Positions 32,258 through 32,770 of a DNA stretch of 64,000 nt are shown one piece after another (within the stretch, counting starts at the first letter, position 1; each line of letters opens with the position of its first letter). Made by a program: the position numbers and the translations under genes. Source of the stretch: Nannocystales bacterium (GTDB lineage: Bacteria > Myxococcota_A > Polyangia > Nannocystales > Nannocystaceae); NCBI GenBank assembly GCA_050633305.1, contig JBOEGF010000018.1, positions 96,001 to 160,000 on the forward strand, in the 5' to 3' direction. Below the pieces are notes generated by a model. It saw nothing but the letters and a program-made list of their open reading frames with translations, had not been told where the DNA came from and ran no database searches.

Positions 32258-32388
32258 CCACCCAACCGCACGAGCCCTACACGCAACTTTCCAGGTGTCG
32301 CCGGTTCGAATCCGGCCCTCCGCTTCGGCGGACGTAGCTCAGCTGGCAGAGCATTGGACTGAACCTTGCGGCTCGTTCACTCGGGTGG
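32258..32388 (+). ncRNA. Array unit 3: YrlA-like topology, tRNA-Phe-like module opened at the anticodon loop
   Basis: TCCAG-GTGTC-GCCGG-TTCGAAT-CCGGC-CCTCCGC-TTCG-GCGGACG-TA-GCTC-AGCTGGCA-GAGC-A-TTGGA-CTGAA inside scaffold CCACCC/GGGTGG. Confidence 0.85.
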
Positions 32389-32401
32389 ACTCAACCTTTT
32401 C

Positions 32402-32544
32402 TCCGTGCCCAATCACCGAAGCCCTACACGCAACGTTTCGCGGGTTCGAATCCCGCCGATCCCTCACGGGGGTTGTAGCCAAGTGGATAAGGCATCAGTT
32501 TTGGGAACTGACTCACTCTCGAGGCTTCGGGCCTCGGGCACGGG
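32402..32544 (+). ncRNA. Array unit 4: scaffold RNA with circularly permuted tRNA, anticodon UGG (Pro-type loop)
   Basis: GCGGG-TTCGAAT-CCCGC; CGATCCC/GGGGTTG; GCC-AAGTGGATAA-GGC; TCAGT-TTTGGGA-ACTGA; scaffold CCGTGCCC/GGGCACGG. Confidence 0.85.
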
Positions 32545-32558
32545 AAACACTCTCCATC

Positions 32559-32631
32559 GGAACAGCCGCGGGCTGTGGAGCGACCTCGCCTTCGCTCCAG
32601 CCCGCGGCTGGGCCACCTCTCGTTGGCCCCC
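32559..32631 (+). repeat. 73-nt double-hairpin spacer, copy 2
   Basis: CAGCCGCGGGCTG/CAGCCCGCGGCTG stem then GGCCA/TGGCC stem. Confidence 0.9.
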
Positions 32632-32642
32632 TCCAGATTCTC

Positions 32643-32770
32643 GTCATCCATCCGCACGAGCCCTACACGCAAGCCATCCAAAGGACGCCGGTTCGAATCC
32701 GGCCGACGTTGTCGTAGCTCAGCTGGATAGAGCATTGGACTCCATCTTGTGGCTTGCACACTCGGGTGAC
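32643..32770 (+). ncRNA. Array unit 5: YrlA-like topology, opened at anticodon loop, CU-CCA (Trp-like) remnant, 4-bp acceptor
   Basis: TCCAA-AGGAC-GCCGG-TTCGAAT-CCGGC-CGAC-GTT-GTCG-TA-GCTC-AGCTGGATA-GAGC-A-TTGGA-CTCCA inside GTCATCC/GGGTGAC. Confidence 0.85.

Follow-up and report, generated by a model that had tools for sequence, protein, structure and literature searches.

The window analysed here is a stretch of 64,000 nt from contig JBOEGF010000018.1 of a Nannocystales genome (GenBank assembly GCA_050633305.1). At 31702-32771, on its + strand, lie six tandem units, numbered 0 to 5, which are followed on the same strand by a gene for a 581-aa vWA protein. Units 3 (32256-32390) and 5 (32642-32771) of this series are probably two of six tandem Y-RNA-like genes of the YrlA design, upstream of a probable divergent Ro60 gene in a Nannocystaceae-like myxobacterium. 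This reading builds on their sequence and fold, on covariation, on linkage to the gene and on the recurrence of a loop frame among homologues.

YrlA RNAs are bound by Rsr and modified by TruB and DusA. They are tRNA-like Y RNAs described with Rsr/Ro60 in Salmonella Typhimurium and Mycobacterium smegmatis (PMC4201824; 10.1101/312249); here and below, statements taken from the literature refer to the available parts of the cited papers. The opening of the YrlA design at the anticodon loop is known, and what is new is a variant of this kind that keeps an anticodon-loop-like strand and lies beside an unrecognised Ro60-like protein. In the organisation proposed for units 3 and 5, a tRNA-like body would be circularly permuted, with its sole opening in the anticodon loop, and both strands would pass from this opening into a conserved handle of three helices that contains a CUACAC bulge and an internal loop, CACUCGG. 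In the 7 nt on the 3' side of the stem, the frame of an anticodon loop would persist: a pyrimidine, U and three bases, often A-rich. Protein binding, partner and function are proposed by analogy with Ro60 and its Y RNAs: the handle may bind the Ro60-like protein, while the tRNA-shaped head with its exposed loop-like strand may engage a tRNA-binding factor as a tether or decoy.

Architecture and fold of units 3 and 5

From the outside inwards, the handle of unit 3 consists of an outer helix (CCACCC at 32258-32263 with GGGTGG at 32383-32388), a handle helix (ACGAGCC at 32270-32276 with GGCTCGT at 32370-32376), a conserved CTACAC bulge directly after the ACGAGCC strand (32277-32282), and a short helix of GCAA (32283-32286) with TTGC (32366-32369), which RNAalifold predicts too. 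A linker, CTT (32287-32289), forms the 3-nt side of an internal loop, is unpaired in the consensus and leads into the tRNA-like head. The head begins with the 3' strand of the anticodon stem, TCCAG (32290-32294, tRNA positions 39-43, from covariation), and continues with the variable loop GTGTC (32295-32299), the T arm GCCGG/TTCGAAT/CCGGC (32300-32316), and an acceptor hairpin, CCTCCGC-TTCG-GCGGACG (32317-32334), of seven pairs with one C-C mismatch, sealed by TTCG. TA, D arm and A26 follow (32335-32353), the D arm itself reading GCTC/AGCTGGCA/GAGC (32337-32352). The variable loop, the T arm and this last segment were placed from the sequence and the Rfam alignment, the T arm also from covariation analysis. 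The 5' strand of the anticodon stem, TTGGA (32354-32358, positions 27-31, from sequence and covariation), then runs into the anticodon-loop-like strand CTGAACC (32359-32365, positions 32-38), in which CTGAA occupies 32359-32363 and GAA positions 34-36.

Unit 5 follows the same plan, with 87% mean column identity to unit 3. Its outer helix, TCATCC (32644-32649) with GGGTGA (32764-32769), shows a compensatory change relative to unit 3 (C-G to T-A), and its linker opposite the loop-like strand is GCCA. The head comprises the anticodon-stem 3' strand TCCAA (32677-32681; sequence, Rfam alignment and covariation), the variable loop AGGAC (32682-32686), the T arm (32687-32703; sequence and Rfam alignment), and a sealed acceptor of 4 bp, CGAC-GTT-GTCG (32704-32714; sequence and alignment to unit 3). 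TA, D arm, A26 and TTGGA follow (32715-32739; sequence and Rfam alignment), with the D arm GCTC-AGCTGGATA-GAGC at 32717-32733 and TTGGA at 32735-32739, and the loop-like strand is CTCCATC (32740-32746; CTCCA at 32740-32744, CCA at positions 34-36). The T loop is TTCGAAT in both units. Both also carry the nucleotides for the tRNA elbow contacts U8-A14, G15-C48, G18/G19 with the T loop, and T54-A58, namely T8, AG..GG in the D loop, C48 at the end of GTGTC or AGGAC, and the T loop itself. The 12-mer GAGCATTGGACT has exactly two copies in the window, at 32349 and 32730, where 0 are expected (100 shuffles).

A first-pass annotation of this DNA had reported a stem in which TTGGA faces TCCAG or TCCAA, the letters CTGAA or CTCCA after it, and an acceptor closed by TTCG (unit 3) or shrunk to 4 bp (unit 5); all of these letters are where it placed them. 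It had also likened both units to tRNAs cut just 3' of the anticodon; the chain, however, is continuous, each strand of the opened loop leading on into the conserved handle. Among homologues the loop-like strand is mostly 7 nt long (positions 32-38) and faces a 2-4-nt strand across an asymmetric internal loop, so that the break in tRNA register falls at 38/39 and not right after the anticodon.

The best Rfam family in a permissive scan of 1.4 kb was YrlA (RF02553), at 42.7 bits for unit 5 and 39.3 bits for unit 3 (E-values 8.9e-8 and 8.5e-7). In the whole genome (11.0 Mb, 90 contigs), YrlA matches with E < 1e-5 occur at the array only, and elsewhere there are none at E < 0.008. As in YrlA, the parts follow one another as handle 5' strand, anticodon-stem strand, variable loop, T arm, sealed acceptor, D arm, anticodon-stem strand and handle 3' strand, which places the T arm, a closed acceptor-like stem-loop and the D arm inside the anticodon-stem equivalent and an end helix. 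The conserved D arm (GUAGCUCA..GGUAGAGC) and T arm (GGUUCGAAUCC) are further likenesses. Units 3 and 5 differ from YrlA in that the second, long helix of its Rfam consensus is missing; this deletion in the alignment keeps the score low, although the order of parts is that of YrlA. They also carry a handle signature of their own, GCCCUACACGCA ... CACUCGG, and lack GNCGAAN0-1G, a motif near the YrlA 5' end that is the proposed Rsr contact (PMC4201824). The first-pass label of YrlA-type is thus borne out by the order of parts and by the best family, and not by the scores, which at 39-43 bits stay under the cut-off of 69; a scan of the window at Rfam gathering thresholds listed no YrlA and only two weak tRNA matches.

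One tRNA match, at 32328-32464, reaches 32.6 bits, above the gathering score. It is a chimera that joins the acceptor, D arm and anticodon-stem strand of unit 3 to the T arm of unit 4, and tandem permuted units can accordingly produce false intron-containing tRNA calls. Together with a contig from RNA libraries that runs from 32730 into the downstream gene, this match might be taken to mean that the units are decayed, rearranged or permuted tRNA genes awaiting processing, or a structured 5' leader of the downstream mRNA. Such an origin is very improbable. ARAGORN finds 0 tRNA genes in the window, and the acceptors, sealed by TTCG or GTT, have neither the discriminator base nor the open 3' end of a functional or permuted tRNA. 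In addition, conservation and covariation of the handle extend across Myxococcota, and neither would survive decay.

Comparative evidence for the fold of type-A units, that is, those opened at the anticodon loop, is strong. Across 19 type-A homologues, drawn from 18 loci, 702 cells were scored and 96.0% of them pair, compared with 30-42% when the partners are slid; 27 of 38 pairs change on both sides, and none of 500 shuffles reaches these values, in counts that favour structure because the model was used to fit the alignments. Support extends to all seven helices. The outer helix (helix 1) is paired in 99.1% of cells, with four of its six pairs changed on both sides, the handle helix (helix 2) in 94%, and the short GCAA helix (helix 3) in 83%, with all four pairs covarying. 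In the anticodon stem (helix 4) all five pairs covary and 95.7% of cells pair; the T-arm helix (helix 5) is paired throughout (100%), all seven acceptor pairs covary (helix 6), and the D-arm helix (helix 7) is invariant. The same helices were recovered by RNAalifold from a plain MAFFT alignment of five unit-3 orthologues that was not fitted to the model.

The anticodon-loop-like strand among homologues

Loop strands were read from matches to a covariance model, R2, of which a script parsed 80 of 153; the other 73, the unit 3 described here among them, lie outside the following counts. These cover 32 unique type-A units (two of them ambiguous) and 41 type-B units, which are opened at the variable region and retain an intact anticodon stem-loop. 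Position 32 is a pyrimidine in 27/32 type-A and 40/41 type-B units, and position 33 is U in 24/32 and 38/41, respectively. At position 37, 21 of the 32 type-A units have A and 37 of the 41 type-B units a purine. The type-A triplets are GAA (6), AAA (5), CCA (5), AGG (2) and sixteen singletons, and type B has 21 different ones. Set against the 18.9% T of these RNAs, the U at the second position of the type-A strand has a binomial P of ~1e-11. With lineages grouped by eye and relatedness only partly controlled, it is found, once the own genus is left out, in 17 of 24 lineages, and GAA or CCA in register in 7 of 24 (P 1.4e-5 from overall composition, 3.7e-4 if the A-richness of those positions is taken as the basis).

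The first-pass annotation had staked its reading on the bases after the stem being anticodon-like in homologues, and in most they are, U standing at position 2 in 24/32. Judged by sequence, the strand thus appears anticodon-loop-like in most homologues across Myxococcota, with GAA/AAA and CCA recurring. For example, the full Phe-like loop CTGAAAA (CUGAAAA) is present in L069, L075 and L164 of our locus collection, and the Trp-like CTCCAAA (CUCCAAA) in L060, in units whose stems are unrelated to TTGGA. This differs from published YrlAs, which, in the parts of the reports available, are said to have a closed acceptor and no anticodon loop (10.1101/312249, Wang et al.); units 3 and 5 retain a 7-nt loop-like strand.

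Among close relatives, the triplet changes. The loop strand is the least conserved part of five unit-3 orthologues that are 91% alike, and reads CTGAACC, CTGATC, CTGACC, TTCGATC or ACACCC. In unit 5 the strand is identical in the sole orthologue found (L155), for which the chance is ~4 in 10 at ~89% overall identity. Eight unit-2 orthologues keep C32, U33, A37 and A38 constant around a triplet of CTT, GTT, ATA or TCT, and the unit 4 triplet is TGG, TGA or CGG. The loop frame therefore appears constrained and the triplet free or diversifying. The predicted retention of CU-NNN was right for the frame in most homologues and wrong for the triplet, which among unit 3 orthologues becomes GAU, GAC, CGA or ACA.

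These changes bear on the proposal that the units are specific mimics of two tRNAs, Phe and Trp, after cleavage in the anticodon loop, standing for damaged tRNA and possibly serving as damage-response ligands or decoys. Unit 3 does show a likeness to Phe. The genome's tRNA-Phe is the best match of its 5' half among 68 tRNAs (48 vs 42) and stays first, narrowly, among 63 tRNAs when the loop is masked (33 vs 31); unit 3 shares with this single genomic tRNA-Phe the string xTGGA-CTGAA (9 of 10 letters, positions 27-36) and the whole variable loop GTGTC. The recurrence of GAA and CCA in 7/24 lineages outside the genus, full loops included, points the same way. Elsewhere the correspondence fails: with the loop masked, tRNA-Phe ranks only 6th-20th of 63 for most of the distant GAA/AAA units, and tRNA-Trp 17th-30th of 63 for all four CCA units, unit 5 included; the bodies of the CCA units are unlike tRNA-Trp. 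Moreover, AAA replaces GAA inside one orthologous group (L064, L068, L079), in line with the triplet changes among unit 3 orthologues. On this sequence comparison, units 3 and 5 do not appear to be faithful copies of tRNA-Phe or tRNA-Trp.

The damage component of that proposal has a parallel in Salmonella, where nicked tRNAs serve as signals for the operon rsr-yrlBA-rtcBA (PMC10159003). The RtcR ligands described there, nicked tRNAs and 5' tRNA halves, are likewise tRNA bodies interrupted in the anticodon loop (PMC10159003, PMC7790460). They arise, however, by cleavage and have free ends and a cyclic phosphate, whereas the units here are continuous, have no free end and have no adjoining rtc genes, nor is there an RtcB gene near the locus. 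What agrees with the first-pass idea of a damaged-tRNA mimic is the topology, an opening in the anticodon loop, and since every YrlA is built that way this is no sign of damage mimicry; nothing else shows it. Specific imitation of cleaved tRNA-Phe or tRNA-Trp is, on balance, quite improbable. Because the triplet drifts or diversifies among close relatives, the units would imitate general tRNA shape rather than damaged tRNA-Phe or tRNA-Trp.

Alternatively, the 7-nt strand and the short strand opposite could form a structured hinge with non-canonical pairs that sets the angle between head and handle, its likeness to an anticodon loop being due to ancestry or coincidence and read by nothing. The crystal structure of Salmonella YrlA has a kink in the anticodon-stem equivalent (10.1101/312249), and the strand is A-rich, with 47% A at positions 3-5. 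In addition, nearly all YURAAAA units have GGGA or GGA opposite (L064, L068, L069, L075, L164, L175, L212, L166), and units of the CCA class carry CCA, GCA or another A-ending linker there. Against this stand units 3 and 5 themselves, whose opposite strands (CTT, GCCA) lack GA, making tandem G-A pairs impossible, and the U at position 2, which is kept in classes with quite different partners. Units opened elsewhere, furthermore, keep true 7-nt loops, and their conserved U33 and purine 37 point to selection for the anticodon-loop fold itself. A hinge of this kind is rather unlikely, though less so than specific Phe/Trp imitation.

Several narrower interactions were considered and set aside. A kissing pair between the complementary triplets UGG of unit 4 and CCA of unit 5 was dropped, as L155, the sole relative that has both units, shows CGG in unit 4 and still CCA in unit 5. 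A codon in cis was ruled out, since neither 5' linker, CTT or GCCA, pairs in register with GAA or CCA. A standard kink-turn was rejected on two counts: a bulge of 2 nt and, in the own units, no G-A on the opposite strand. The MiaA determinant A36-A37-A38, needed yet insufficient (PMC5699536), is present in 12/32 type-A strands, and units 3 and 5 have CC and TC at 37-38; a determinant of this type was also rejected. Separately, some intact-loop units carry triplets that would read stop codons: CTA in TTCTAGA, TTA in TTTTAAT and TCA in CTTCAGA, at L060:1797 (the same sequence as L047:803), L114:1949-2096 and L105:2300-2443.

The neighbouring protein and its linkage to the units

The gene for the vWA protein (32826-34571, + strand) starts with an ATG 55 nt past the end of unit 5, on the same strand. 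Its 581-aa product has a C-terminal vWA domain (residues 386-483; PF13519, E 8.5e-8, matched by 42/42 family members) and an N-terminal domain of ~380 aa that is probably TROVE-like. Apart from vWA it has no Pfam or NCBIfam match, PDB sequence and profile searches returned vWA matches only, and PHROGs gave weak matches at the vWA junction only. Aligned by hhalign to ten canonical myxobacterial TROVE proteins, the family profile reached 80.9% probability (E 1.2e-5), collinear over 184-425. A feature search of the ESM Atlas with residues 1-380 placed TROVE clusters on top (0.84), which serves as a lead only. On these profile and feature matches, the protein is likely to be Ro60-like, though divergent.

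Linkage between gene and units is consistent across relatives. The gene is single-copy in the genome and occurs in 14/72 genomes of the own order sample. A large protein collection holds 1102 relatives, the named ones being "VWA domain-containing protein" of Nannocystaceae, Myxococcus, Archangium and Hyalangium. Cultivable carriers of the operon include Archangium gephyra and Corallococcus coralloides (loci L087 and L116). Species genomes yielded 236 relatives and metagenome contigs 368, and the best 80 of each were taken as locus sets, in which the own locus is L039 (locus position + 31325 = window position). Model R1, a covariance model made from units 3 and 5, had 118 matches in the 80 genome loci, all upstream of the homologous gene and on its strand. 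With R2 at E <= 1e-8, the genome loci (83) gave 92 matches and the metagenome loci (80) gave 61, again all on the strand of the gene. By comparison, in an even sample of the phylum R1 matched 5/151 genomes, the own included.

This arrangement resembles known Ro60 systems in that the units adjoin a probable Ro60-type gene on the same strand, and several units per locus are known elsewhere; it differs in that the neighbouring protein is not recognised as TROVE. In the same phylum, canonical pairs of Ro60 and YrlA are listed for Plesiocystis pacifica SIR-1 and two Sorangium cellulosum strains (PMC4201824, supplement file 4), with a Ro protein of 559-560 aa and a putative YrlA 189-389 nt away on the same strand. 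There, as far as the available parts of that file go, the protein is TROVE-annotated and the RNA comes after the gene, whereas here a 581-aa protein with no Pfam TROVE match follows a six-unit array. The survey by Chen et al. in 2014 began from TROVE-annotated genomes and reported few YrlA in delta-proteobacteria (PMC4201824); starting from TROVE annotations, it could not see a vWA-annotated family. Our literature search, of partial coverage, found no account of Y-RNA arrays in myxobacteria or of a Ro60-like family annotated as vWA.

Another comparable Y RNA is Yrn1 of Deinococcus radiodurans, which has a T-arm-like stem-loop and a possible anticodon arm and tethers Rsr to an effector (PMC4201824). 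As described in the available text, it differs from units 3 and 5 in lacking a full D arm, in its 6-nt anticodon-like loop and in the opposite orientation of its arms; unit 1 of the array, which has a T arm only, is closer to Yrn1 than they are.

Some related loci are organised differently. In L063 and L065, ~150 nt upstream of the gene, the tRNA body is in natural order and opened at the acceptor end. Canonical-TROVE loci (L135:3267-3902, L136, L137, L139, L141, L143) contain tandem tRNA-like RNAs of 122-134 nt, also in natural order, with a ~50-nt hairpin inserted after the D arm, and an Rfam scan of ten canonical TROVE loci gave no YrlA match at E up to 0.001.

Directly downstream of the vWA gene, a conserved open reading frame (ORF) of 303 aa (34577-35488, + strand) is present in 77/80 loci by tblastn and has no Pfam, NCBIfam, PHROGs or usable ESM Atlas match. 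As for RtcB, the genome has five matches, none of them near the locus: the nearest on the contig starts at C18:421239, the locus lying near C18:128000.

Transcription of the array has weak support from Logan contigs. In two polyA RNA libraries of a marine metagenome, these cover 32008-32186 (unit 2), 32259-32565 (units 3 and 4) and 32409-32657, besides the contig from 32730 into the vWA gene. The contig over 32259-32565 belongs to a related strain and differs at 16 places, with none listed at 32348-32455, the span with TTGGACTGAACC.

A number of points weigh against Y-RNA-like genes beside a divergent Ro60. On the protein side, Pfam TROVE matches 0/42 family members and nothing in the own genome, and without the vWA part the hhalign comparison falls to 3.8% probability and a score of 27.8, where reversed and shuffled controls reach 14-22. 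On the RNA side, both units score below the YrlA gathering score, and GNCGAAN0-1G is found in 0/6 own units (and at 22/208 roughly defined handle starts in 81 loci). Single-sequence folding is unremarkable (unit 3 z -1.12), the minimum-energy fold of unit 5 has no cloverleaf, the pair counts benefit from model-fitted alignments, and the loop counts come from part of the R2 matches. The RNA evidence consists of contigs with no RNA ends, from libraries of a kind that can hold DNA, and the raw-read RNA runs X23 and X24 had zero reads on the stretch and so amounted to no test.

The array as a whole and its significance

All six units, delimited by R1 matches (L039:931-1065 for unit 3 and L039:1317-1446 for unit 5), share one handle, with the repeat GCCCTACACGCAA in its 5' strand and CACTCGG in its 3' strand; the repeat family has five copies, in five units. 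R1 matches and folding also characterise the other four units, all on the + strand: unit 0 (31702-31804) is a handle only, unit 1 (31851-31989) has its T arm only, unit 2 (32002-32150) has the intact loop CTCTTAA, and unit 4 (32403-32543) is opened at the variable region and keeps an intact anticodon stem-loop, TCAGT-TTTGGGA-ACTGA.

Further elements lie between and around the units. A 73-nt element occurs twice with 93% identity, between units 2 and 3 (32169-32241) and between units 4 and 5 (32559-32631). Its fold combines a long, almost perfect hairpin with a second one (-52.9 kcal/mol, z -5.36). The element is also present in related arrays and has no Rfam match; it may be a processing site. 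T-rich runs (CCTTTTCTCC, CACTTTTTCTCTTC) stand 5-10 nt past the outer helix of each unit (32391-32402, 32772-32790), in the same place in homologues; they are too far from the outer helix for a textbook terminator and are possibly a 3'-end signal. A scan of 31300-32900 for promoters and terminators gave 0 sites of each kind. Upstream of the array, the region 31478-31676 contains TTGACG (17 nt) TAAACC, resembling a promoter; a short ORF or small RNA starting ATGTCGAG; and a hairpin plus T-run (GCCGCCCGAC..GTCGAGGCGGCTTTTT), the hairpin being nearly letter-identical in related loci. One related array contains a (CTCCAT)n microsatellite in the interval from unit 1 to the hairpin element (L157:1150-1260).

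A more far-reaching interpretation, tentative and less likely than not, is that the locus represents a second, unrecognised myxobacterial Ro60-like system, whose Y RNAs would form a panel of tRNA decoys or tethers. In such a panel, one handle would carry tRNA bodies in three circular permutations (opened at the anticodon loop, the variable region or the acceptor end), and all of them would show the frame of a true anticodon loop. In units 3 and 5 the loop strand would be read by an anticodon-loop-binding factor and evolve under changing selection; the reader might be an enzyme that modifies position 37, a synthetase or an anticodon nuclease. The triplet might then be fastest-changing among close relatives and still, over long distances, recur in classes (GAA/AAA, CCA, GAU, AGG). 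A related role has been suggested by Hughes et al., according to whom the YrlA head could competitively inhibit an anticodon nuclease (PMC7790460).

Arrays of this kind yield false or chimeric tRNA calls, and the Rfam YrlA threshold misses them. A widespread myxobacterial family whose sole annotation is "VWA domain-containing" probably represents a hidden Ro60 branch. Finally, published YrlAs are described as having no anticodon loop in the parts of those reports available, and the array reveals a lineage that appears to keep the anticodon-loop frame, which would narrow the search for a partner to factors that touch the anticodon arm.

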